Positions 4,173 to 38,528 of a stretch of DNA of 64,000 nt are shown piece after piece. Within the stretch, counting starts at the first letter, position 1, and each line of letters opens with the position of its first letter. The translations under genes and the position numbers were made by a program. Source of the stretch: a plasmid; sequence record NZ_LR134454.1; one strand, given 5' to 3'. The notes under the pieces were generated by a model. That model was not told the DNA's origin. It searched no databases and was given only the letters and a program-made list of their open reading frames with translations.

Positions 4173-5734
4173 TGTGCTCGTCCTCCGGTGCCGGCGGTGG
4201 TCGGTCTACCGCGAGAAAGTAGCACGGTCGCCCGGACTCTCCTCGCAGCCGACGAGGCCCGGGCAGGGCAGGGCTGTCTAGTCGCCGGGTCCCCCGCCGG
4301 AGCGTCGTCGGGACGGGGCTGCAGGGCGTGGGGCGGGTGGCCGGTGAGGTACTCGGGGCTGAGGAGCGACGCGAGGGTCGCCTCATCGAGGAGGGCCCGT
4401 TCGCGCACGATCTCGACGACCCCGCGCCCGGACTCGAGCGCCTCGGCGGCGACCGAGGTCGCGGCGGCGTAGCCGATGGTGGGGCTCAGTGCGGTGACGA
4501 CGCCGATGGACTCGCTCACCATCTGCTCCAACCGCTCCCGGTTCGCCGTGATCCCGGAGACGCAGCGCTCCCCGAGCACGCGGGCGCCGCGCGTGAGGTG
4601 CGCGATCGACTCGACCAGCGAGCGGGCGATGATCGGCTCGAAGGCGTTGAGCTGCAACTGCCCGCCCTCGGCGGCCATGGTGATGGTGACGTCGTGGCCG
4701 ATCACCTCGTAGGCGATCTGGTTCACCACCTCGGGGATGACGGGGTTGACCTTGCCCGGCATGATCGACGACCCGGCCTGCACCGCGGGCAGGTGGATCT
4801 CCGCGAGGCCGGCGCGCGGGCCGGACGACAGCAGCCGCAGGTCGTTGCAGGTCTTCGACAACTTCACCGCGATCCGCTTGAGCACGCCGGAGAGCTGGAC
4901 GAAGACGCCGACGTCGGCGGTCGCCTCGATGAGGTCGGTGGCGCCGACCAGTTCGTGAATGCCCGTGACCTCGCGCAGTTGCTCGATGACCTTGCGGCGG
5001 TAACCGGGGTGGGCGTTGAGGGCGGTGCCGATCGCGGTGCCGCCGATGTTGAGCTCGTGCAGCAGCCGAGTGGCCTCCTGCAGCCGCACGATGTCCTCGC
5101 CCAGCGTGGTGGCGAACGCGCCGAACTCCTGGCCGAGCGTCATCGGCACCGCGTCCTGGAGCTGGGTGCGGCCCATCTTGAGGATGCCCGCGAACTCGTC
5201 CGACTTCGCGGCGAAGGTGCCGCGCAGTTCCGTGAGCGCCTCGGCCAGCTCGGCGAGCTGGGTGATGAGGGCGATCTTGATCGCGGTCGGGTAGACGTCG
5301 TTGGTGCTCTGCCCCAGGTTCACGTGGTCGAGCGGGTGCAGCGCGGCGTAGTCGCCCTTCGGCCGGTCCAGGTGCTCCAGCGCGGCGTTCGCGATCACCT
5401 CGTTGGCGTTCATGTTCGTCGACGTGCCCGCGCCGCCCGCGATGGTGTCGACGACGAACCACTCGTGCAGCCCGCCGCCGCGGATCCGCTCGCACGCCGC
5501 GACGATCGCCGCGGACCGCTCCTCGTCGAGCAGGCCAAGCTGTCGATTGGCCGACGCCGCGGCCTGTTTCACTGCGGCCAGCGCGTGCACCAGGTGGGTG
5601 TGGATGGCGATGGGAACGCCGGTGATCGGGAAGTTCAGCAGCGCCCGGGCGGTGTGGGCGCCGTAGTAGGCGTCGGCGGGGACGTCGATGTCGCCGAGCA
5701 GGTCGTGCTCGCTGCGCGTCTGCGGAGAGGTCAT
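4169..5734 (-). CDS. aspA: Aspartate ammonia-lyase (aspartase).
   Basis: The N-terminus HDLLGDIDVPADAYYGAHTARALLNF is aspartase-type rather than fumarase-C-type. Class II lyase signature GSSIMPGKVNP plus TNDVYPTA and QLQDAVPMTLGQEF. GGAGGG RBS before the ATG at 5734. The Pro/Arg-rich C-terminal ~50 aa is atypical, so the true stop may lie earlier. Confidence 0.85.
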   Translation of the reverse strand: MTSPQTRSEHDLLGDIDVPADAYYGAHTARALLNFPITGVPIAIHTHLVHALAAVKQAAASANRQLGLLDEERSAAIVAACERIRGGGLHEWFVVDTIAGGAGTSTNMNANEVIANAALEHLDRPKGDYAALHPLDHVNLGQSTNDVYPTAIKIALITQLAELAEALTELRGTFAAKSDEFAGILKMGRTQLQDAVPMTLGQEFGAFATTLGEDIVRLQEATRLLHELNIGGTAIGTALNAHPGYRRKVIEQLREVTGIHELVGATDLIEATADVGVFVQLSGVLKRIAVKLSKTCNDLRLLSSGPRAGLAEIHLPAVQAGSSIMPGKVNPVIPEVVNQIAYEVIGHDVTITMAAEGGQLQLNAFEPIIARSLVESIAHLTRGARVLGERCVSGITANRERLEQMVSESIGVVTALSPTIGYAAATSVAAEALESGRGVVEIVRERALLDEATLASLLSPEYLTGHPPHALQPRPDDAPAGDPATRQPCPARASSAARRVRATVLLSRGRPTTAGTGGRAQ

Positions 5735-5781
5735 CCGCTCATCCTTCCGCACCACCCTCCTCCGTCGGAGGATTTGCGGAA

Positions 5782-6087
5782 TCAGCCTGTGCGACCGGCC
5801 CGCCCGCTGTGCGGTTCCGCGGTGACCGGGACACCCGCGGTGGCGAAGACGTCCAGCACCTCGGAGTAGAGCTTCGCGCCGAGCGCGGTGCGGACCTCGT
5901 CGGCGTGCGTGAGGCGGAAGCCGAAGGGCTCGTCCTCCGGGGTGCCGAAGCCGCCGCGCAGGCAGTCGACGAGGGCGTCGAGGTTGCTGCCGAAGTAGCC
6001 GTCGGGGCCGTTCACCGCGCGCCCGAGCTCGGTGTAGAAGTCGGCCGCCCCGGTCACCCGGCTGCCGTCCACGGTGTAGGTCTTCAC
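5782..6087 (-). CDS. Barstar-like ribonuclease inhibitor (immunity protein for the adjacent RNase).
   Basis: YFGSNLDALVDCLRGG matches the barstar core YYGENLDALWDCLTG. The gene is 101 aa and sits immediately downstream of, and co-oriented with, the RNase gene (4-nt gap). Confidence 0.65.
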   Translation of the reverse strand: MKTYTVDGSRVTGAADFYTELGRAVNGPDGYFGSNLDALVDCLRGGFGTPEDEPFGFRLTHADEVRTALGAKLYSEVLDVFATAGVPVTAEPHSGRAGRTG

Positions 6088-6090
6088 GTC

Positions 6091-6471
6091 TCAGGCTCCC
6101 GTCACGATGCAGAACGAGGCGTAGTGGTCGCCGGTGTAGTACAAGTTCGGCGGGGACGTGAGCGGCGTTCCGCCGGTGACGATCCGGCGTGCGCCGCGGG
6201 TCGACGAGCCGGGCGTCGGCACCGTGTACTCGTGGTAGTACCCCGAGGCCTGCGCGGGCAGGATCCCCTCCCGGTTCTGGAACACGACCCCGTCGTTGCG
6301 CGGGTACGGGAACGGACCGCCCTGATGGATGAGGTCGACGGTGTCGGCCGCCTGCGCGGGCAGGGACGACAACGCGCAGGAGGGCAGGGCGGCGGAGGCG
6401 GGGGAGACGGTCGCGACCGTGACGCCGAGCGCCACGACGACCGATCCCGCGAGGCGGGTTGCGATGCGCAT
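6091..6471 (-). CDS. Secreted guanyl-specific ribonuclease of the RNase Sa / microbial N1-T1 family.
   Basis: Signal peptide MRIATRLAGSVVVALGVTVATVSPASA. The mature region DTVDLIHQGGPFPYPRNDGVVFQNREGILP...GYYHEYTVPTPGSSTRGARRIV...YYTGDHYASF aligns almost residue-for-residue with Streptomyces RNase Sa, including the catalytic E and R/H residues. Confidence 0.9.
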   Translation of the reverse strand: MRIATRLAGSVVVALGVTVATVSPASAALPSCALSSLPAQAADTVDLIHQGGPFPYPRNDGVVFQNREGILPAQASGYYHEYTVPTPGSSTRGARRIVTGGTPLTSPPNLYYTGDHYASFCIVTGA

Positions 6472-6587
6472 GATCAGAAGTTAGCCGAAGTAGATGATCG
6501 CCGGGTGGCAGCGCGGTGAACGTCCTGGACCGGCTGCGCCGATGGGTCGCCGGGCGCCGGACCCGGCGATGGCCGGCGCCAGGTGGG

Positions 6588-6848
6588 GGACTCGGCTTCC
6601 GGTGGGGGGTGCCGGCGGCGGATGAGGGGCGTGGCGGCGTTTCCTGGGGGACTGAACGCTGGGTGGGGGAGGAGCCGGCTTCTGGTGGGGGATTCGGCGC
6701 CGCGTGGGGGACGTTCGCTCCCCCGCTCCACGACCGGCGTCCCGTGGGGGCGGGAACGCAGGGTGGGGGAGACGGCGATCGTTGGGGGACTGAACGTGTG
6801 GTGGGGGGGAGACGGCGATCGGCGGGGAACTGAGCGTGTGGTGGGGGT
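6588..6848. repeat. G-tract repeat array on the + strand (C-rich on the strand that would form the RNase 5' leader): at least 12 copies of (T)GGTGGGGG(A), including a ~39-bp unit duplicated in tandem at 6763-6800 and 6801-6840.
   Basis: Repeated motifs, read directly from the sequence, include ...caggtggggga...ggtggggggt...cctgggggactgaacgctgggtggggga...ctggtggggga...gcgtggggga...gggtgggggagacggcgatcgttgggggactgaacgtgtggtgggggggagacggcgatcggcggggaactgagcgtgtggtggggg. The array occupies the 390-bp intergenic gap between the TetR stop (6862) and the RNase start (6471). Confidence 0.7.
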
Positions 6849-6861
6849 AGCGCGTCCGGGG

Positions 6862-7521
6862 CTACCTCTCGCGGGGGGTGTACGACGCCAGGCCCAGGGC
6901 GACGACGGTGAGCTGGCGGGTGGTGCGCTCGATGAGCTCCGCCTCGTCGCGGGTGTTGCGGGCGTCGATGCGCACCAGCTCGGCGACGAAGCCCAGCATG
7001 ATCGTGACGTAGAGGTCGGCGGTCATGTCGAGGTCCTCGACGCTCCACTCGCTCAGCGCGGGGATCCGCGAGAGGTCGTGGGTGAGCTCCTTGGCGAAGA
7101 GTCGCAGCTCGACGTCGATCGCGCGTTGCAGTTCGGGGGAGCCGCCGTAGCGCTCGCGCACGAGGAACTGGAACTCGGCGTCGTTGGCGCGGGCCTGCTT
7201 GGCGACGACGCGGATCGCCTCCGCGCCGCTCGGCGCCACGCCCTCGCGCCGGCCCTCGCGCAGCATGCGGCGCAGCACGCGCATCGCGTCCTCGACCAGG
7301 GTGACGCCGAGGTCGTCCATCGATGCGAAGTGGCGGTAGAAGGCGGTGGGCACCACGCCGGCCGCCTTGGCGACCTCGCGCAGCGACAGGCTCGCGAACG
7401 AGCGTTCACCGGCCAGGGCCAGCGCCTCGTCGAGCAGGGTCTGTCGCGTGCGCTCCTTGGCCTCCGCCCGCGACGGTCCCGGGGTGTGCCGTTCGACGGC
7501 GCGCGGGGACGGTCTGGGCAT
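6862..7521 (-). CDS. TetR-family transcriptional regulator, divergent from the desaturase operon.
   Basis: HTH region TRQTLLDEALALAGERSFASLSLREVAKAAGVVPTAFYRHFASMDDL. The gene is divergently arranged with the reductase-desaturase pair, as TetR regulators of DesA3 operons are in mycobacteria. Confidence 0.8.
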   Translation of the reverse strand: MPRPSPRAVERHTPGPSRAEAKERTRQTLLDEALALAGERSFASLSLREVAKAAGVVPTAFYRHFASMDDLGVTLVEDAMRVLRRMLREGRREGVAPSGAEAIRVVAKQARANDAEFQFLVRERYGGSPELQRAIDVELRLFAKELTHDLSRIPALSEWSVEDLDMTADLYVTIMLGFVAELVRIDARNTRDEAELIERTTRQLTVVALGLASYTPRER

Positions 7522-7662
7522 GGGGTCGAGTCTATCGCCCCTGCGTCGGGGCGGTGTCGCGGAGGTTGTGGCCGAGGTCACGGAACAACTCCTTGACGAG
7601 GAGCGGACGGCTGCGTGCATACTGTGAGTGTACAAGCGTGCACTGAACGGAGAAACACAGCC

Positions 7663-8715
7663 ATGAGCCGCTTCACTCGATTCGCCGGATCCGTCGTCGA
7701 GGCCGTGCTGACGCCTCACGCCGTCGACCGCTACCTCGAACTCGTCGATCCGATGGTCACGTGGACCGACATCCGCGGACGCGTCACCGCCGTGAGCCGC
7801 CGCACCGACCGGTCGGTGACGTTCACCGTGACGCCCACCCGCCAGTTCGAGGGCTTCGAGGCGGGCCAGTTCATCCAGGTCAGCGTCGTGATCGACGGTG
7901 TCCGTCAGTCGCGCTGCTTCTCGCCCGCCGGCTCGCAGCATCAGGGCGGCGAGCTCGAGTTCACCGTGACCGCGGACGCTGACGGCCACGTCAGCAAGCA
8001 TCTCCGCGACAATCTCGCCGTCGGCGACGTGCTGGGACTCACCCCGGCCGCCGGCACCTTCACCCTGCCCGGGACGCCGGGGAACCGCCCCGAGCGGATC
8101 CGCCTCATCAGTGGTGGCAGCGGCGTCACACCCGTACTCTCGATCGTGCGCACGCTCGTCGACGAGAACCACGACGGTCCGATCGACGTCCTGCACTTCT
8201 GCCGCGACGCGGCCGATAACCCGTACCGCGCGGAGCTCGAGCGCCTCGCCCGCCTGCGGAACGTCTCCGTCACCTACGTGTACACCCGCGCCGGCGGCCG
8301 CCACCTCGGCCCGGAGCACCTCGAGGACTTCGGCGACATCGGCTTCGCGTGCGGCCCCGCCCCGCTGCTCGAGACCGCGAAACAGCTGTACTCCGACGCC
8401 GGCGTCGAGCTCCGCGTCGAGGAGTTCACCCCGCCCGTGGCGGCGGCACCGTCGGGCGAGGCGACCGGCACCCTGCGCTTCACCGAGGCCGGCACCGCGG
8501 TCGACAACGACGGCCGCAGCATCCTCGATCAGGCCGAGTCCTCCGGCCTGTTCCCCGAGAGCGGCTGCCGCATGGGCATCTGCTTCTCCTGCACCGCCGT
8601 CCGCAAGACCGGCTGCACCACCAACATCCTCACGGGCGAGACCGACGACGAGCCCGATCAGCACATCCAGCTCTGCATCAGCGCGCCCGTCGGCGACGTC
8701 GAGATCGCGCTGTAG
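7663..8715 (+). CDS. Ferredoxin-NAD(P) reductase-type oxidoreductase (FAD/NAD-binding plus C-terminal 2Fe-2S ferredoxin domain), electron partner of the desaturase (Rv3230c-like).
   Basis: Flavin-binding RCFSPAG, GGSGVTP and a C-terminal CxxxxCxxC...C cluster (SGCRMGICFSCTAV...LC). GGAG RBS before the ATG at 7663. Lies directly upstream of the desaturase. Confidence 0.8.
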   Translation: MSRFTRFAGSVVEAVLTPHAVDRYLELVDPMVTWTDIRGRVTAVSRRTDRSVTFTVTPTRQFEGFEAGQFIQVSVVIDGVRQSRCFSPAGSQHQGGELEFTVTADADGHVSKHLRDNLAVGDVLGLTPAAGTFTLPGTPGNRPERIRLISGGSGVTPVLSIVRTLVDENHDGPIDVLHFCRDAADNPYRAELERLARLRNVSVTYVYTRAGGRHLGPEHLEDFGDIGFACGPAPLLETAKQLYSDAGVELRVEEFTPPVAAAPSGEATGTLRFTEAGTAVDNDGRSILDQAESSGLFPESGCRMGICFSCTAVRKTGCTTNILTGETDDEPDQHIQLCISAPVGDVEIAL

Positions 8716-28133: not shown

Positions 28134-31100
28134 ATGGCGAACCGGTTCAAGGGGAGGCGCGCTGCGCGCGCCGGAGTGACGCTGACCCGGGCGCAGGAGC
28201 ACGTTCTCGCCGCGCGCGCGGCCGATGGGCAGGGTCCGCTCTGGACGATCAGCGAGTACATCGTCCTCGACGGGGACGTCGACGACGCCGTGCTGCGCCG
28301 CGCCGCCGCGTACGTGGCGACGGCGGCCGAGCCCCTCGTGGTCCGGATCGACGAGAAGGCGCACACCCAGGTCACCGGAGCCGGTACCACGGTTGTCGTG
28401 GAGGAGGTCGACCTGCGCCACGCGGCCGATCCCGAGGAGGCGGCCCGCAGGTTCGCCGCGGACCGTCTGGCCTCGCCCCCGCGCGCGCCCCGGGTCCGCC
28501 TCGCCCTCGTCCGCACCTCCGCGACCCGGGTGCGGCTGCTGCTCGAATGCGACCTCGCGGTCGCCGACGGCTACACCGCCGCCCGCGTCCGCGCCGCGAT
28601 CGCCCGCGCCTACACCGCCCTGGTCGAGGGCCGCACCCTGCAGGCGGACCCGATCCGTCCGCTGCGCGCGCTGCGCGACGCCGAATCCGGCTACCTCGCC
28701 TCCCGCGACCGCGCGGAGGACGCCGCGTACTGGCGCGCCGCCGGCCTCCCGGGCCCGACCACGCTTCCGGGCGGCGCACCGTCGGGCGCCCCGAACGGCC
28801 AGGTCCGGGCGCCGTTGCTGTCCGTTCCCGCGGAGCTCGTCGGCAGCCTCGACGCCGAGGCCCGCGCCGTGGGCGTGCGGAACTTCACCGTCGCCGTCGT
28901 CGCGGCAGCGCTCGTCGCCGCGCGCCGCACCGGCGCCGAGCGGGTGCGGGTCGACCTGCCCGTGTCCGGCCGCATCGACGAGACCGGCCTCGACACCGAC
29001 GGCGCCGCGGGCACCACCATCGCCGTGCGCGTCGACCTCCCGCCGGCGGGCACGGTGCGGGAGTGCCTGCGCGCCGTCGACGCCTCCATCCGGCAGGCCT
29101 TCCTGCACCAGCGCGGCCGCCCGCTCGACGGCGAGCACGGCTCGACGGGCCTGGTCGTGAACTACCTGCAGCCGATCCCGGAGGACTTCGCCGGCGTGCC
29201 CGGTGGCACCGAGGTGATCAACGCCGGCCCCGTCCGGCACCTCGCCTTCGTCGCGCTCGCGATGGACGACGGCCTCGTCCTCGACGTCCGCGGCCGCGCC
29301 GGGGTCTTCGACGACGAGCAGGTCGCCGCCCTCGCCGCCGAGTGGCGCGGCGCCATCGCCGCGCTCGTCGCCGACCCCGACGCGCCGCTGGGCCCGCTCC
29401 GCGAGGTCGTTGTCGCCTCGGAGCCGGCCACCCCGGACGCCGCCGCGGTGGGTACCGCCGTCGGCGGCGACGACGTCGCGCTCGTCGCGCAGTTGCTGAG
29501 CGACATCCTCGGCGTGCCCGACGTGGGCCCCGACGATTCGCTCTTCGACCTGGGCGGCACCTCGCTGGTCGCGGTCCGGGTCACCGACCGGCTCGCCGAG
29601 CTGCGCGGCGTCCAGATCCCCGCGGTCGACGTCTTCGACAACCCCACGCCCCGCGGCCTGGCCGCGCTGCTCGCGACGGCGCCGCCCGTCGCCACGCCTG
29701 CGCCGAGCCCTTTGAGCGGCATCGCGATCGTCCCGGCGTCCGGGTCCGAGGACGCCGCGGCATCGTCGACCCCGGCCCCGTCCGGCCCGGTGATCCCGTC
29801 CCTGGGCGACGTTCCGGAGGCCCCCGCCTCGCACGCGCAGGCCGGCCTGTTCCGCGACTTCCAGCTCTCCGGGCCCTCGCCGGTCTACAACATGCCGCTG
29901 GTACTCGACTTCGACGAGCCCGTGGACGCCGCCGCGATGGCCCTCGCCGTGCGGGACGTGGTGATCAAGCACCGGGCGCTGCGCACCGTGCTGCGGCTGC
30001 GCGGCGACGACGTGGTGCAGGACCTCACCGTTCCCGTCGACGACGCCCGGCTGCTCGAGCGGCGCACCGTCGCCGCCGACGACCGCGACGACGCCGCCCG
30101 CGAGTGCGCCGCGTACGCCTTCGACCTCGCCGCGGAACCGCCCTTCCGGGGCTGGCTGCTGGAGGACGCCGACCCGGACGAGCCGCAGCGGATGGTCCTC
30201 GTGCTGCACCACACCGCCGGCGACGGCGCGTCCGTGGGGCCGCTGCTGCGCGACCTGGTCGCCGCCTACGCGGCCCGCCGCTCGGGCGTCGCGCCGGATC
30301 TCGGCGCCCCCGCCGTCGAGTACGCCGACGTCGCCGCGTGGCAGGTCGCGCGGCTGCGGGACCCCGACGGCCCGGTCGTGGCGCAGCGCGAGTTCTGGCG
30401 CCGCACGCTCGACGGTGCGCCCGCCGAGACCGCGCTGCCCGTCGACCGGCCGTACCCCGCGGAGAACGGCTTCGCCGGTGGCACTGTCGATCTCGCGTGG
30501 CCCGCCGAGCTCACCGCGTCGCTGCGGACCGTCGCGCGCGCGTCCGGAGCGAGCCTGTTCATGGTCCACTACGCCGCCCTCGCGGCGCTGCTGTCGAAGC
30601 TCGGCGCGGGCGACGACGTGGTGATCGGCACCGCCGCGTCCGGTCGCCCCGCGTCGTGCGACGACGTGGTCGGCATGTTCGTCAACCTGCTGCCCCTGCG
30701 CACCACCGTCGACTGGTCGGCCCCGTTCGAGGAGTACCTGCGGCGCACCCGCGCGACGGTCCTCGACGCCTACGCGAATCAGGACGTGCCGTTCGGCGAG
30801 GTCGTCGCGATGCAGCCCCGCGGCTCGGCCGCCCGTCACCCCGTCTTCCAGGTGATCCTCGGCTGGAACGAGGACCCGGGCTGGGGCGACGTGCGGGACG
30901 TCCTCGGCGCCGAGGTGGCGCCGATGGCCGCCGGCACGTCCCGCGCGGACCTGCTGTTCAGCATCACCGAGTCCGCCGACGGCCTCGCCGGCGGCGTCGA
31001 GTACCGCACCGACGTCTTCGACCGCGCCACGATCGAGACCCTGGTCGCCCGCTGGCGGCGGCTGCTCGAGCAGATCGCCGCGGAGCCGCGGACCCCCGTC

Positions 31101-34100
31101 GCGGCCCTCGACGTGCTGCTCGACGCCGAGCCCGCCACCCTCGCGGCGTGGGGCGCACCGTCGGGCCCGCAGCCCACCCGCGTCGTGCCCGACCTGATCG
31201 ACGAGTGGATCCGCACCAGCCCCGACGCGCTCGCCCTCGTCGACGACGAGGAGTCGCTGACCTACGCCGACCTCGACCGGGAGGCGAACCGCTGGGCCCG
31301 CCACCTGCACGGCGAGGGCGTCCGCCCCGGCGACGTGGTCGCTGTGACGGTGCCCCGCTCGGCGCGGCTCCTCGTCGTGGAGCTGGCCGTGCTGCGCGCC
31401 GGCGCCGCGTACCTGCCGATCGACCCCGCGTACCCCGCGGAGCGCATCGCGTTCCTGCTGGAGGACGCGGCGCCCCGCCTCGTGGTCGGCGCCGACACCG
31501 TCCCCGACCTGCAGCGGTTCGACGGCGCGCCGCTCACCGACGCCGAGCGGGGCCGGCCCCTGCGACCCGAGGACGCCGCGTACGTCGTCTACACCTCCGG
31601 CACGACCGGCACCCCGAAGGGCGTCGTGGTGCCGCACGCCGGTGCCGCCGGCCTGGCCGCGGCGATCGTCGCCGAAACCGGGGCGGGCCCGGGCGCGCAG
31701 GTGCTGTCGAACTTCTCGGTGGGCTTCGACATCTCCTTCTGGGACCTGCTCAGCGCGCTCGCCACCGGCGGCACGCTGCGGATCTCCGCCGAGACCCGCG
31801 TCGGCGACGAGCTCGCCGACTTCGTCGAGGAGCACGGCGTCACGCACGCGCTCATCACCCCGTCGGTCCTGGCCGCGGTCACGCCGGGCCGGATGGCCTG
31901 CCTGACCTCGCTCACCGTGGGCGCCGAGGCGGTCACGCGGCCGCTCATCGAGGCCTGGGCACCCGGGCGCCGGCTGATCAACGCGTACGGCCCCACCGAG
32001 CTCACCGTCGCCACGACCGTCGGGCGGCTCGAACCCGGCGCCGACGTGGTGTCGATCGGCCGCCCCATCGGCGGCTCCCGCGCGTACGTCCTCGACGCGG
32101 GGCTGCGCCGCGTGCCGCCGGGCGTCGTCGGCGAGCTGTACGTCGGCGGGCCGGGCGTCGCGCGCGGCTACGGCGGCCGTCCGGGCCTGACGGCGTCGCG
32201 GTTCGTCGCCGACCCGCTCGGCGCCGACGGCGACCGCGTCTACCGCACCGGCGACCTCGTGCGCTGGCTGCCCGGCGGCGAGCTCGAGTACGTCGGCCGC
32301 GCCGACGACCAGGTGAAACTGCGCGGCTTCCGGATCGAGCCGGGCGAGGTCGAGGCCGCGCTCGCCGCATGCCCCGGCGTCAGCGCCGCCGCGGTCGTCG
32401 TGCAGGGCGACGGTGCCGCCCGCCGCCTCGTCGGCTACGTCACCGGCACGGCGACCGAGCCGGACGCCCGGGCCTTCGCGGCGCGGAGCCTGCCCGCGCA
32501 CATGGTGCCCGCCCGCGTGGTGGTGCTCGACGCGCTGCCGCTGACCGCGAACGGCAAGGTCGACCGCGCGGCGCTGCCCGCGCCCGACGCCGGCGACGAG
32601 GCCCGTTACCGCGCCCCCGGCACCTCCGCCGAGGAGCTCCTCGCCGGGGTCGTCGCCGAGGTGCTCGGCGTGGAGCGGGTCGGCGTCGACGACTCCTTCT
32701 TCGAACTGGGCGGCGACTCGATCACGGCGATCCAGCTGGTGGGCCGCGCCCGCGCCGCGGGCCTGACGCTGACCGCCCACGACGTCTTCGCGCACCGCAC
32801 CGTCGCGGGGCTCGCCGCCGTGGCCGGCGTGGCCGATCCCGCGGACGCCGTGCCCGACGACGGCGTCGGTGAGATCCCGCCGACGCCGGTCCTCACCTGG
32901 TTCGCCGCGCGCGGCGGTACGCCGGACGGCTTCCACCAGTCGGTGCTGGTCCGCACCCCGTCGTCGGTCGACATCGCGACGGTGCACGCGCTGACCCAGG
33001 CCGTCCTCGACCGGCACGACGCCCTGCGCGCGGAGATCGGCGAGGCGCCCGGCGGGGGCCTCTCGCTCACCGCGCGGCCCGTCGGCGCGGTCGCCGCCGC
33101 CGACGTGGTGGACCGCGTCGACGCCACCGGTCTCTCCTTCGACGAGGTCGGCGCGATGATCGCCGCCCAGCACCGCCGGGTGACGGCCCTGTTGCGCCCG
33201 GGCGCACCGTCGCTCCTACGGGTCGTGTGGTTCGACCTGGGCCCCGAGCGGGAGGGCGCGCTGCTGGTCGCGGCGCACCACTTCGTCGTCGACGGCGTCT
33301 CCTGGCGCATCCTGCTCACCGACCTCGCAACCGGCTGGCACGCCGCCTCGACGGGCCGGCCCGTGGTGACGGCCCCGGTGGGCAGCTCCTTCCGCCGCTG
33401 GGCGACGGTGCTCGCCGACCGCGCCGGGCAGGTGGGCCCGGACGAGCTCGCGTACTGGCGGTCCGTGCTCGACGGTGCGCCGTCCCTGGTCGACGGTGCG
33501 CTGGACCCGACCCGCGACACCCACGGTTCCGCCGGCCATGCCGAACTGACCCTGTCCGCCGACGTCGCCGCGCCGTTGCTCGGCGCGGTGCCCGAGGCGT
33601 TCCACGCGGGCGTGCAGGACGTGCTCCTCGCGGCCTTCGCGACCGCGGTGACCGCTTGGGCGGGCGAGCGCGGACGCGACGCCGAATCGGCGCTCGTCGA
33701 GGTGGAGACGCACGGCCGCGACGAGACCCTGGCCCCCGGCCTGGATCTCACGCGCACCGTCGGCTGGTTCACCAACGTCCACCCGCTGCGGCTGCGGCCG
33801 GGCGCGGGTGCCGACGCCGCCGCGGCGGTCAAGAACATCAAGGAGCAGCTGCGGACCGTCCCGGACGGCGGTATCGGCTACGGCCTCGCGCGGTTCGGCG
33901 GCGCCGCGGCGGCGCAGGAGTTCGCGGGACTGCCGCAGCCGGAGATCGGCTTCAACTACCTGGGCCGCACGACCGGCGCGAGCGACCGCGACTGGGCGCC
34001 CGACCGCCGCTTCCCCGACCTCTCCCCGGCGCCCGACGGGCTCGCGCTGCTGCACGCCGTGGAGGTGAACGCGGTCGCCCGCGACGGCGCCGACGGGCCG

Positions 34101-37100
34101 GAGCTCGTCGCGTCGTGGACGTGGGCGCCCGCGCTCGTCGACGAGGACGCGGTGCGCCGCCTCGGCGCGCTGTGGTTCGACGCCCTGCGCGGCGTCGTGG
34201 CCGCGGCCGACGACGCCGGCGGGCACACGCCCTCCGACTTCCCGCTGGTCGCCCTCACCGCGGCGCAGGTCGAGCGGCTCGACGAGCGCTACCCGGGCCT
34301 GCAGGACGTGCTGCCGCTGACCGCGCTGCAGCAGGGCTTCCGGTATCACGCGGAGCTCGGCGACGCCGACGACGAACGGCCCGACCCGTACGTGGTGCAG
34401 ACGGTGATCGACTTCGCGGGCGCCCTCGACGAGGGCCGCTTCGCGGCGTCGGTCGCGGCGCTCCTGGCCCGCCGCGAGGCGCTGCGCGCCCGGTTCGTCG
34501 CCGACGGCCTCGACGCGCCCGTCCAGGTCATCGCCGCCCCCGGGCCCGCGCCCTACCGGTACGAGGATGTGCGCGCGGACGACGACCCGGAGGGCCGGTT
34601 CGCCGAACTCGCCGCGGCCGAGCGGCGCCGCGGCTTCCGCCTCGACCGCGACCTCGGCATGCGGTTCCTTCTGGTCCGGGTGGGGGAGCGGGACTTCCGG
34701 CTGGTGGTGACCAACCACCACATCCTGTGGGACGGCTGGTCGGCTCCGGTGATCTTCCGCGACCTGCTGGCCGGCTACGCGGGCCTCGACCCCGACGCCG
34801 CCGGCGTCCCGCGGGCGACGCTGCGCGACTACTTCACCTGGCTGCGGGGCCGCGACGGCGACGCCGCGCGCACCGCGTGGGCCGCCGAGCTCGACGGCCT
34901 CGACGAGCCGACGCTCGTCGCCCGCGACCTCCCGCGCGCGCACCCGAGCGGCGCCGCGCGCGGGCCCGGAGCCGACGGCGGACCGTCGGGCCCGGAGCAG
35001 GACGAGGTCCGCGCGACCATCCCCGCCAACCTGACCGCGGCCGTCACGCGCCTCGCGGGCCGCCTCGGCGCCACGCCGGGGGCGGTGCTGCAGGCCACCT
35101 GGGCGATCGCGCTCGGCGGCGCGACGGGCCGCGGCGACGTGGTCTTCGGCTCCGTGCAGTCGGGCCGCCCCGCGCAGCTCGACGGCGTCGAGGACCTGGT
35201 CGGCCTCCTCATCACCACCTCCCCGGTGCGGGTGGACCTGGACCCGCGGCGCACCGTCCGCGAGGTCGCGCTCGGCGTGCAGGAGCAGTACGTGCGCCTG
35301 CTCGACCACCAGCACCTCGGGCTGACGGGCATCGCCCGCGCGGCCGGGCGGGACGAGCTCTTCGACTCGCTGTTCGTGGTGGAGAACTACCCGTCGACCG
35401 CGGGCGCGACGATCCCCGGCACCGATGTCGAGGTCGTCGACGTGCGCGGCGACGACGCCACCCACTACCCGCTGTCCGTCGCCGTGGTCCCGGGCGAGAC
35501 CCTGCACGTCCGCGCGGGCTTCCGCACCGACGCGGTGGACCGCGCGGCCGTCGAGGACCTCCTCGACCGGTGGCGCCGGATCCTGACCGCCGCGGTCGCG
35601 CGCCCCGACGCCCGGCTCGCCGACATCGACGGCGCAGGGGAGACCGAGCGGCTGCTGGTGCGGCGCTGGGGCGGCGCGATCGGCGGCGTGCCCGCCCGCA
35701 CCCTGCCCGAGCTGTTCGCGCGCCGCGCCGCGGCCCGGCCGAAGTCCCGGGCCGTCGCGGGCGAGGGCACGCCCCTCACCTACGCCGAGCTCGACGCGCT
35801 CTCGAACCGGTGGGCGCGCCGCTTCCTCGCCGAGGGCGTCGGCCCGGGCGACGTGGTCGCCGTGACCGCGCCCCGCTCGATCGGCTTCGTCGCCGTCGTG
35901 CTCGGCGTCGCGAAGGCCGGCGGCGCGTTCCTGCCCATCGACGCCGCGACGCCGCGGGAGCGGATCGAGGCCATGTTCGCCGACGCGCACCCCGTCCTCG
36001 AGGTCGACGGTGCGCTGCTCGACGCGGGGCCCGGCGGGGACGCGGGCGAGGAGCCCGTCACCGACGCCGACCGGCGTGCTCCCCTGACCCCGCAGGACGC
36101 GGCCTACGTCATCTTCACCTCGGGCTCGACGGGCACGCCCAAGGGCGTCACCGTCACCCACGCCGGCCTCGCCGACCTGGTGCGGACCTTCGACGAGCTG
36201 GATCTCGGGCCGGGGACCCGGATGCTGCACAACGCGTCCGTCGGCTTCGACGCCGCGGTCTGGGAGCTGCTGTGCGCGCTCGGCACGGGCGGCACGCTGG
36301 TCGTCTCGGCGACGGTGCGCGCGGGCCGCGAGCTCGCCGCCTTCGTCGAGAAGTACCGGGTCACCAACGCGGTGCTCACGCCCTCCGTGCTGGCGTCGGT
36401 GCCGGAGAGGCGGATGCGGGGCCTGACGTCGCTGGTGGTCGCCGCCGAGGCGGTGCCGCGTGCGCTCGTCGACCGCTGGGGCCCCGGCCGCCGGCTGGTC
36501 AACGCCTACGGCCCCACGGAGGCCACGATCGCGGTCTCGTTCGCGCGGATCCGCCCCGGCGAGTCCGGCCCGGTGCCCATCGGCCGCCCCGTCCGCGGCA
36601 TGGCGGTCCGGGTGCTCGACGGCGCCCTCCGCCGCGTCGCGCCCGGCGTCGTGGGCGAGTTGTACGTCGCGGGCGCCGCGGTGGCCCGCGGCTACGTCGG
36701 CCGGCCGGGCCTCACGGCGTCCCGGTTCGTCGCCGACCCGTACGGTGGCGCCGGGACCCGCATGTACCGCACGGGTGACCTGGTCCGGTGGCTGCCCGAC
36801 GGGACGCTGGAGTACGTGGGGCGCGCCGACGACCAGGTGAAGATCCGCGGCGTCCGCGTCGAGCTCGGCGAGGTGGAGGCGGCGCTGGCCGCCTGCCCGG
36901 GCGTGAGCGCCGCGGTCGCCGCGGTGCGCGACGGCGCCACCGGTGCGCGGCTCGTCGGGTACGTCGTCGCGCCCGGCCTCGCGCCCGACGAGGTGACGGC
37001 CGCCGTCGCCCGCCGGCTGCCCGCCGCGATGGTCCCGTTCGTCGTGGTGCTCGACGCGCTGCCGCTGACCCCGAGCGGCAAGCTCGACCGGGCTGCGCTG

Positions 37101-38528
37101 CCGGAGCCGGTGTTCGCCGCCGCGGCCGGGTACCGGGCCCCCGAGACCGAGGAGGAGCGGGCCATGGTCGCGCTGTTCGAGTCGGTCCTCGAGGCCGAGG
37201 GCGTGGGCCTGGACGACTCCTTCTTCGAGCTGGGCGGCGACTCGTTGTCGCTGATGCGGCTCGTGGACCGCGTGGACGTCGACTTCGGGGTCCGCGTCCC
37301 GATCGTGGGGCTGTTCGAGAGCGCCACCCCGGCGTCGGTGCTCGCGTCGCTGTCGGCGGCGGGAGGGGCGCGCGCCGGCGTCGAGGTCCCCGTCGACGAC
37401 GTGCGGTTCGCGCCGGCCACGCCCGACGTGGTGCCGAGCGGGCACGAGGTCCTCGTCACCGGCGCCACCGGCCTGCTGGGCGGGCACCTGATCCGGGCCG
37501 TGCTCGAGGCGGACCCCGCGGCGCGCGTGCGGGCCCTGGTCCGCGCCCGCGACGAGGCGTCGGGGCTGGAGCGGATCCGCGCGACGATGCGGGGCTACGG
37601 CTCCTGGTCGGACGGCTACGAGGACCGCATCACCGCGCTCCCCGGCGACCTCGCCGAGCCGGGCCTGGGCGTGGACGCGGCCGTGTGGGATCGCGTCATC
37701 GAGCAGGTCGACGCGATCATCCACTGCGGCGCGCGGGTCAACCACGTCGAGCCCTACCCGCGGCTGCGGGCCGCCAACGTCGACTCCACGCGGTTCCTGC
37801 TGGAGCTGGCCTCGCGGCGGCCGGGGACGGTCTTCCAGTTCGTCTCCACCATCTCCGCCGCGGGCGCCTTCGAGGAGATCCCCGACGCCGGGTACACGCA
37901 CTCGAAGTGGGTGGCCGAGCGGGTCGTGGAGCTCGCGGCGGCGAGCGGCGTCCCGTCGACGATCCTGCGTCCCGGCCTCCTGACGGGCGCCCTGGACTCG
38001 GGCGCGACGAACACGGACGACGCCTTCTGGAACCTGGTGCGGTCGATCGCGACGGTCGGCGCGGCACCGTCGGAGCTGCTGGACCAGACGATCGAGATGA
38101 CCCCCGTCGACCGCGCCGCGGAGGCGATGGTCGAGGTCCTCCGCACGGGCGACGAGCCGCTGCGGACGCTCGAGGTGGGCAGCGGCTCGCGGGTGAGCTG
38201 GCGGGAGATCGTCGGGGCGCTGCGCCGCGGCGGCTATCCCGTCGAGGCGGTGCCGGGGCACGTCTTCCTGGAGCGGCAGACCGCCGCGTTCCGCGACCGG
38301 CCGGAGGTGGCGGGGGCGCTCGCGCGCGCCATTCTGCTCATCCGTGCAGGTCTGGAGCGTGAGACCGTCGGCGAGGGTGGCGGCTGGACCCCGACGAGCG
38401 CCGCCGACGGGCGGATCGGGCTCGACGGTGACCGGGGTCCCGTCGGGGACGCCGGGCTCGACGTCTACGTCGACTACTTGGTGCGCATCGGCTTCCTCCC
38501 GCGCGTGGGGAAAGGGGCCGAGGTGTGA
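28134..38528 (+). CDS. Non-ribosomal peptide synthetase, 3464 aa, dimodular with a terminal reductase. Domain order: C* (degenerate)-T-C-A-T-E-C-A-T-R.
   Basis: aa 1-440: condensation-like fold with ECDLAVADG in place of HHxxxDG. aa ~470: [15 protein letters not shown]1 [11 protein letters not shown]1 cores [64 protein letters not shown]1 [12 protein letters not shown] domain [13 protein letters not shown]2 [11 protein letters not shown]2 cores [44 protein letters not shown]2 [12 protein letters not shown] domain [19 protein letters not shown]...YTHSKWVAE (thioester reductase). Confidence 0.9.

Follow-up and report, generated by a model that had tools for sequence, protein, structure and literature searches.

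A phased G-run array between a TetR gene and an RNase-barstar gene pair of Tsukamurella tyrosinosolvens, best explained as a strain-polymorphic intergenic minisatellite

A dense array of G runs was analyzed that lies between the genes for a TetR-family regulator and a guanyl-specific RNase (6582-6852) in a 64-kb stretch of DNA (64,000 nt, termed the window throughout). The best explanation, to which we assign a probability of roughly 0.6, is that the array is a lineage-specific intergenic minisatellite (VNTR) of Tsukamurella tyrosinosolvens that is polymorphic among strains. It does not code for a protein, nor does it represent a conserved regulatory element. It is length-polymorphic and evolves fast, and purifying selection on it was not detectable, because it turned out to be more polymorphic than the third codon positions of neighboring genes. 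Its appearance is that of a rapidly evolving spacer that may serve as a zone of transcription termination, rather than that of a conserved toxin switch. It is striking in its regularity, its importance is modest, and no new mechanism has to be invoked.

Gene context and anatomy of the array

Exact look-ups of the proteins encoded in the window assigned them to T. tyrosinosolvens; the G+C content of the window is 72.7%. The genes around the array are located on the minus strand. On one side lies the gene for a TetR/AcrR-family regulator, which extends from 6862 to 7581 (or to 7521), encodes 239 or 219 amino acids depending on the start, and ends with a stop codon at 6864-6862. On the other side lies the gene for the guanyl-specific RNase of the Sa/T1/N1 family (6091-6471; PF00545, E = 1e-25), the N-terminal segment of which was judged by eye to be a putative signal peptide. 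It is followed, 4 nt further downstream, by the gene for a barstar-family inhibitor (5782-6087; PF01337). An earlier note, which was based on inspection of the sequence, had named an RNase and a barstar as the neighbors, and the two domain matches on the minus strand confirmed both; the array was also correctly placed upstream of this gene pair. The TetR stop codon is separated from the RNase ATG by a spacer of 390 bp (6472-6861), most of which is filled by the array. A further portion (6524-6581, minus strand) represents the non-repeat part of the lineage-specific insert, and it carries a GC-rich hairpin at 6553-6580 (GGCGCCGG-N12-CCGGCGCC) that lacks a U tract.

The array is built from about 13 to 14 half-units of about 20 bp, or about six units of 40 nt with two G runs each. 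The half-unit motif is (G)GTGGGGGA on the plus strand, which corresponds to TCCCCCAC(C) on the gene-sense minus strand, and the plus strand is composed of 52% G and 22% C. Runs of at least five G start at positions 6585, 6604, 6646, 6665, 6687, 6706, 6746, 6765, 6784, 6803, and 6843, so that 11 runs are present within 6585-6847, and two additional runs of four G are found at 6626 and 6824. The earlier note had counted at least 12 runs of five or more G between 6588 and 6848. The dense array is real, but this number is a slight overcount, since the twelfth run (6873-6878) is situated within the TetR coding sequence and not in the spacer, and the first run begins 3 nt before position 6588.

The entire window contains 68 runs of at least five G and 35 runs of at least five C. 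At this rate, about 0.24 G runs are expected in 263 nt, versus the 11 that were observed (Poisson P ~2e-15), and the density is indeed far above the background of the window, as had been claimed. Dinucleotide-preserving shuffles of the array contained 5.7 +/- 1.4 runs, and none of the 2000 shuffles reached 11. Likewise, TGGGGG occurs 10 times in the array versus 2.1 times in dinucleotide shuffles. The start-to-start distances between the 13 runs are 19, 22, 20, 19, 22, 19, 40, 19, 19, 19, 21, and 19 nt, which gives a basic period of about 20 bp (19-22 bp). The lone distance of 40 is occupied by an inverted copy of the motif (GGGGGACGTTCGCTCCCCC, 6706-6724) with a C5 run at 6720-6724. This copy can form a 6-bp hairpin, it keeps the 20-bp phase, and it is weakened to GGGGAA in two other alleles (L031 and L036).

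Several programs recovered the higher-order unit. TRF reported a period of 40 with 2.1-2.6 copies and 81-90% match, a repeat finder reported five to six copies of a 37-40-nt unit with 68-100% identity, and a unit HMM matched six copies. The youngest tandem duplication spans 6765-6847 and comprises two copies of 40 nt (6765-6804 and 6805-6844) that are 90% identical. A duplication of about 39 bp with copies starting at 6763 and 6801 had been noticed earlier; it is real, and only its coordinates and its length had to be corrected. The longest homopolymer lies at 6803-6809 and is a G7 in the window. The G5 or C5 of the motif is kept in nearly all half-units, whereas the intervening 11-14 nt differ by half or more. 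It is not obviously predicted by neutral decay of duplicated units that the motif outlasts the sequence between the motifs, and its retention could reflect selection on the motif, e.g. for protein binding or for G4 formation.

The array is non-coding. The open reading frames 6516-6833 (plus strand) and 6474-6731 (minus strand), which run across it, had no match in Pfam, the period of 19-22 or 40 nt is not a multiple of three, and run-length differences of 1-2 nt among strains disrupt every reading frame through the array. The suspicion that the open reading frames across the array are spurious was therefore justified.

Strain polymorphism and distribution in the genus

An exact look-up of the 239-aa TetR protein yielded nine complete alleles, together with a contig that breaks off within the array; all of them come from strains or metagenomes that encode this exact protein. 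The nine spacers have lengths of 350, 388, 391, 442, 466, 473, 480, 480, and 490 bp. In most alleles, the TetR stop codon is directly followed by a block of 87-101 bp, absent from the window, in which three to six copies of the heptad GTCAGCG are found. The 40-nt duplicate is present as a single copy in L034 and L037 and as two copies in the other strains; because the breakpoints of the deletions in L034 and L037 differ, changes of the duplicate are recurrent. The run at window position 6803-6809 was found as C4, C5, C6, G7, or G8, depending on the strain (C4-C8 overall). The G8 version occurs in L001 and L002, two assemblies that encode the same RNase as the window with its G7. Four other homopolymer runs in the array vary by +/-1 among strains. 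The earlier proposal that the array is prone to slippage is borne out by these run lengths and by the 40-bp duplicate, which is present once or twice among strains with identical TetR proteins. The comparison of copy numbers among strains that had been suggested as a check revealed nine alleles between 350 and 490 bp. Point substitutions form mosaic patterns among the alleles, which suggests recombination.

Among the nine alleles, 23 of the 276 columns of the array are variable (8.3%), as are 11 of the 103 columns in the non-repeat part of the spacer. The respective values for third codon positions are 5 of 240 for the TetR gene and 17 of 351 for the oxidoreductase gene. In a comparison of L001 with L010, the array differed by 4.4% versus 1.6% at four-fold sites (P = 0.009). 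The columns of the C runs were not significantly more conserved than the others within the array (3 of 70 versus 20 of 206 variable columns, P = 0.21).

Bacterial intergenic VNTRs or minisatellites consist of head-to-tail units of about 10-100 bp in non-coding DNA, and they differ in length or copy number among strains. The array has such units, and among the strains a 40-nt unit is present one to two times and a 7-nt unit three to six times. Both of these defining features were found, and in its behavior the array corresponds to an intergenic VNTR of the MIRU-VNTR type; it resembles rut regions in composition and plasmid iterons in phasing. As in the MIRU-VNTR loci of Mycobacterium tuberculosis, tandem repeats of at least about 40 bp lie in non-coding DNA that separates two genes of the same orientation in a Mycobacteriales genome, and they can serve for typing because strains of the same species differ in copy number. 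In contrast, MIRUs are an interspersed family at dozens of loci, whereas the Tsukamurella unit was found at one locus only (in the 64-kb window and in a scan of representative genomes that missed the source locus), and the G5 motif phased at 20 bp is absent from MIRUs. The array offers a length-polymorphic marker for T. tyrosinosolvens, an opportunistic pathogen; nine alleles were found among nine strains or metagenomes in which the neighboring protein is identical.

All Tsukamurella loci that were retrieved share the gene order desaturase, oxidoreductase, TetR, RNase, barstar, and fumarase, and the length of the TetR-RNase spacer varies widely. It comprises 52-53 bp in T. paurometabola, T. 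strandjordii, and lineage L026, 58-60 bp in T. serpentis and lineage L014, and 76 bp in USMM236-like strains, and C5 runs are missing in all of these. LR131273 has a spacer of 105 bp with one unit and two C5 runs (GTCCCCCAC-N11-TTCCCCC), and T. pulmonis a spacer of 142-147 bp with one degenerate unit. Spacers of 350-490 bp were found in T. tyrosinosolvens-type strains, the only lineage at such a length. A metagenome contig with an RNase that is 94% identical ends within array-like sequence. As judged by sequence comparison, the array is limited to T. tyrosinosolvens and its closest relatives among the loci compared.

A search of the 64-kb window with the unit HMM (nhmmer) found no copy outside of the array. 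A scan of species-representative genomes with the strict 23-nt pattern CCCCCACCNNNNGYTCAGTYCCC yielded no hit in Tsukamurella, which is a weak negative because the source locus itself was also missed; it was probably masked, or the strain is absent from the collection. For this reason, the scan is weaker evidence that the unit occurs nowhere else. It returned nine isolated chance hits, in unrelated MAGs and in one Streptomyces. A literature search on tandem repeats in Tsukamurella returned nothing relevant.

The lineages form a series that leads from no unit via one unit with two motifs to about six units with a newest duplicate that is still polymorphic. From this series, we infer that the array grew by slipped-strand mispairing or by unequal recombination between short direct repeats. 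The seed may have been two TCCCCCA motifs 19 nt apart, which would have survived as the single unit of the close relatives. The series thus offers a clear snapshot of the birth of a minisatellite, with a stage without a unit, a stage with a seed unit, and a stage with about six units.

Transcription across the spacer

The earlier note had placed the array into the leader or promoter region of the RNase gene. The spacer sequence speaks against this assignment. A core of 52 nt (6472-6523, minus strand) adjoins the RNase start and is conserved in every Tsukamurella species examined, with the consensus GTTCACC...GCCAC...ATCAyCTrCkTCsGCTAACTT-N6/7-ATG. In several species, this core represents the entire TetR-RNase spacer. 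It ends with GGCTAACTT, a -10-like TANNNT at 6483-6478 on the minus strand, 6 nt before the RNase ATG (6-7 nt genus-wide). When both strands of the 390-bp spacer were checked, this was the only TANNNT, and thus the only one is located in the core between the array and the ATG. A Shine-Dalgarno sequence is not present before the RNase ATG. The -10 element of M. tuberculosis, SRN-TANNNT, has its center 7-12 bp upstream of start sites, and leaderless transcription applies to a quarter of the genes and to 32 of 37 toxin-antitoxin pairs (PMC3898074). The lone conserved TANNNT near the ATG, the missing Shine-Dalgarno sequence, and the match to M. tuberculosis together suggest that the RNase promoter probably lies inside the core, downstream of the array, and that the RNase transcript would be leaderless. 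Because this putative promoter is downstream of the array, the array is probably not part of an RNase leader. It would rather form a 3' trailer behind the TetR gene and precede the probable RNase promoter. The idea that an RNase toxin is controlled via a long G/C-rich leader is corrected accordingly. Scans of 5700-7800 on both strands with consensus sequences for sigma-70 promoters and intrinsic terminators found nothing.

A TetR transcript that continues beyond the stop codon would enter the array immediately, and the resulting RNA would be rich in C, poor in G, and weakly structured. In the sense RNA, the 117 nt that follow the TetR stop codon contain 58% C and 14-15% G, with a C/G ratio of 3.75-4.09, and windows of 78 nt contain 45 C and 11-12 G. 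This stretch of 117 nt is the most C/G-skewed of the 64-kb window on either strand. RhoTermPredict searches for 78-nt windows with C/G > 1 that have a C every 11-13 nt and are followed by a hairpin. Its predicted rut sites in E. coli have a C/G ratio of 1.6 on average, and the program makes about 24,000 calls in E. coli (PMC6407284). Six C residues at a spacing of 11-13 nt, as this program requires, can be found from 39 start positions in the RNA after the TetR gene, and the region has a ribosome-free window of at least 78 nt with more C than G and regularly spaced C residues, as is expected of a rut site. In the minimum free energy structure, the ~80 nt that follow the stop codon are mostly unpaired or involved in long-range pairs (overall z of -1.5). 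GC hairpins are predicted downstream of the C-rich stretch at 6706-6724 and 6553-6580, and the latter is a candidate pause site for RNA polymerase downstream of the C-rich tract. Every lineage with a spacer longer than the core has a C-rich sense strand in the spacer (C/G 1.3-2.05).

On this basis, we infer with moderate confidence that the array may act as a Rho-loading trailer behind the TetR gene that limits read-through. The C-rich RNA would provide the loading (rut) region, and the GC hairpins downstream would serve as pause sites. Since the G-rich strand is the template strand, G4 roadblocks could add to the effect, and together the two would keep read-through from the TetR gene away from the RNase gene. 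Our confidence is only moderate because the criteria are unspecific at high G+C, because species with a 52-bp spacer do without the array, and because nothing is conserved. What the array shares with rut regions is an RNA segment of 78 nt or more directly behind a stop codon that is rich in C, poor in G, and apparently weakly structured; C residues are frequent in it, and GC hairpins are predicted further downstream. The array differs from typical rut regions in that it is far more extreme (C/G of about 4 versus a mean of 1.6), strictly periodic, built by tandem duplication, and missing from sister species.

Criteria that are based on C/G > 1 are unspecific in a genome with 73% G+C, and an insulating role is dispensable, as species with a 52-bp spacer have no such tract. 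If the Rho or the G4 inference holds, the natural alleles with spacers of 52, 105, and 350-490 bp would be a convenient test set. This allele series would bear on C-rich trailers, template-strand G runs, and termination in high-G+C actinobacteria, in which terminators are poorly defined.

Alternative explanations for the phased runs

An alternative to a minisatellite is that a G-quadruplex on the G-rich plus strand, or an i-motif on the C-rich strand, controls transcription of the RNase-barstar genes or of the TetR gene. The scoring of G4 propensity that the earlier note had suggested identified the array as the most G4-prone stretch of the window. The G4Hunter peak of the window is 2.24 at 6745-6769 (25 nt), and the array ranks first at every scale tested, with 1.53 at 100 nt and 1.09-1.11 at 260 nt, where the next region reaches 0.62. 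The array contains one canonical G4 motif, GGGGGCGGGAACGCAGGGTGGGGG, at 6746-6769 on the plus strand, which has loops of 1/6/1 nt and fits (G3+ N1-7)x4; it agrees with the definition of a G4 motif as four runs of at least three G with loops of 1-7 nt or a G4Hunter score of at least 1.5. With the G4 model of ViennaRNA, 6746-6769 has a predicted energy of -14.5 versus -4.1 kcal/mol. When the model is switched on for the whole array, the minimum free energy changes from -128.8 to -150.1 kcal/mol (21 kcal/mol lower), and a five-tetrad G4 is predicted from the runs at 6746, 6765, 6784, and 6803 with linkers of 14 nt. The G-rich strand is the template for transcription from the TetR gene towards the RNase gene, and a G4 on the template strand is in the orientation that is expected to block RNA polymerase.

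However, all G4 candidates of the array except 6746-6769 require loops of 14 nt, and about 35 other regions of the 64-kb window, a sequence with 73% G+C, also reach a G4Hunter score of at least 1.5. Furthermore, more than 100 bp separate the probable RNase promoter from the closest run, the array is polymorphic without detectable constraint, including the G runs, and it is missing from sister species with the same genes. Therefore, a G4 propensity by score stands, whereas a conserved control role does not fit to an array that is absent in sister species and outpaces synonymous sites, and we regard control by a G-quadruplex or an i-motif as unlikely. The array shares ~40-nt G-rich units, strand asymmetry, a predicted G4, and length instability with G4-forming minisatellites such as the human CEB1, which has G-rich units of about 39 nt. 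It differs from them in that it is bacterial and in that most G runs are 14 nt apart, so that most of its predicted G4s would need long loops.

The Rho and the G4 mechanisms could also be combined with the recent origin of the array. The array might then be a newly born, tunable insulator that sets the level of read-through from the TetR gene into the RNase/immunity operon via Rho and/or via a template-strand G4. If this were true, the number of units and the run lengths would make strains differ heritably in toxin expression. We consider this decidedly doubtful.

Returning to the minisatellite, the regular phasing of its motifs also invites a comparison with iterons, i.e. the 13-14 GTGGGGGA boxes at about 20 bp might be a platform for a DNA- or RNA-binding protein such as an RNase regulator or a poly(C)-binding protein. 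The spacing of the boxes is strikingly regular (19-22 bp across 13 runs, within the 17-22 bp at which iterons are phased), the units agree better in the motif than in the sequence that separates the motifs, and the one inverted box is in phase. Plasmid iterons and centromere-like arrays also consist of more than 10 direct repeats phased at about 20 bp. Unlike them, the array has no initiator or partition gene of a mobile replicon in its vicinity, nor another candidate gene for a binding protein, and its flanks represent a chromosomal gene order that is conserved across the genus, including sister species without the array. In addition, the number of boxes and the lengths of the runs vary, and the box columns are not significantly conserved. 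For the TetR protein, a conserved palindrome of its own is present in the divergent promoter region, and the boxes are unrelated to it. A binding platform is therefore very unlikely. It was also considered whether the array is a decoy for the TetR operator, and this was rejected: the palindrome AGTGCACGCTTGTACACT has no counterpart in the array. The 8-mer ACTGAACG is present in two units of the array and beside the palindrome of the divergent TetR/oxidoreductase region, and we take this as a coincidence.

The earlier note had also proposed that the tracts are contingency loci, in which slippage at G/C homopolymers would switch the toxin RNase on and off. As at the contingency loci of Neisseria, Haemophilus, and Campylobacter and at mycobacterial homopolymers, simple-sequence tracts vary among close relatives, with the run lengths from C4 to G8 and the +/-1 changes described above, and they differ even between assemblies that encode identical proteins. 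In contrast to those loci, none of the runs is located in a reading frame or between a -35 and a -10 element, and an on/off mechanism is not apparent. The nearest run (6585) is 102 bp upstream of the -10-like GGCTAACTT. Runs in the array are only 5-8 long, which is short for high-frequency switching, and a sequencing error in the homopolymer could account for the difference between G7 and G8. Together with the absence of the array in sister species and a divergence that exceeds that of synonymous sites, this makes contingency control of the toxin highly improbable.

The reading of the array as a structured non-coding RNA (a 6C-like sRNA with C-rich loops or an RNA sponge) or as a gene for a small repeat protein is already largely refuted: the C-rich motifs are reminiscent of the C-rich loops of the actinobacterial 6C RNA, open reading frames of 85-105 codons span the array, and the annotation of one strain has a gene for 54 amino acids there, but sister species lack the array, coding is opposed by the Pfam, period, and indel results given above, an Rfam search of 5500-8000 with cmscan (E <= 10) yielded hits at the level of chance only and found no match inside the repeat units, neither to the covariance model of 6C RNA nor to that of other families, and folding was not significantly better than that of shuffled sequences (sense strand, z = -1.5; plus strand, z = -0.26). 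The sole Rfam match in the spacer was a viral frameshift hairpin of 27 nt at 6553-6580, i.e. at the position of the GC-rich hairpin, with an E value at the level of chance (E = 3.6).

Sequences directly upstream of the RNase gene

The 390-bp spacer between the TetR stop codon and the RNase ATG (6472-6861) contains, on its RNase-proximal side, a core of 52 nt (6472-6523, minus strand) that directly adjoins the upstream side of the ATG and that was retained in all Tsukamurella species examined. The core ends at its 3' side with GGCTAACTT, followed by six or seven nucleotides and the ATG, and a Shine-Dalgarno sequence was absent in front of the RNase ATG. The 52-nt core looks like a leaderless promoter of the RNase-barstar gene pair. 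In some species only, it includes a short inverted repeat, ATCGCC-N4-GGCGAT.

The RNase gene itself (6091-6471) was compared with that of a second strain (L010). Four of the five differences were found at codon positions 1 or 2; for the genes flanking the RNase gene, the differences between the same two strains were almost all at position 3. Together with its upstream spacer, the secreted RNase has the appearance of a local divergence hot spot.

Variable repeats in the spacer

Two metagenome contigs terminate within the G-run array (6582-6852): L025 begins 187 nt upstream of the RNase gene, and L039 stops 260 nt past the TetR gene. These ends suggest that short-read assemblers break at the repeat. 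In two other assemblies encoding the same RNase as the window (L001 and L002), the run at 6803-6809 consists of eight G residues, versus seven in the window, and this was the sole difference across 460 aligned bases. It may represent a homopolymer sequencing error or true slippage inside one strain lineage.

Most alleles of the T. tyrosinosolvens type carry another variable repeat adjoining the stop codon of the TetR gene, namely, a block of 87-101 bp with three to six copies of the heptad GTCAGCG (about 1960-2050 in L031-L037). The insertion point lies between positions 6848 and 6849, and the block is missing from the window, L030, L034, and L038.

The TetR gene and its divergent region

The start of the TetR gene (6862-7581, minus strand) differs between public annotations, resulting in proteins of 219, 239, 240, or 251 amino acids, and one record annotates the protein as FabR-like. 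Between this gene and the divergently transcribed oxidoreductase-desaturase genes, the imperfect palindrome AGTGTACAAGCGTGCACT (7627-7644) is conserved genus-wide and is probably the operator of the neighbouring TetR. The 8-mer ACTGAACG occurs four times on the plus strand of the window (6651, 6789, 7642, and 44265), versus about 0.4 expected occurrences. It is present in two array units and again next to the putative operator; its presence in both regions was treated as a coincidence.

Elsewhere in the window, a single ORF of 10.4 kb (28134-38528, plus strand) with a GC3 of 97% is evidently a giant gene.
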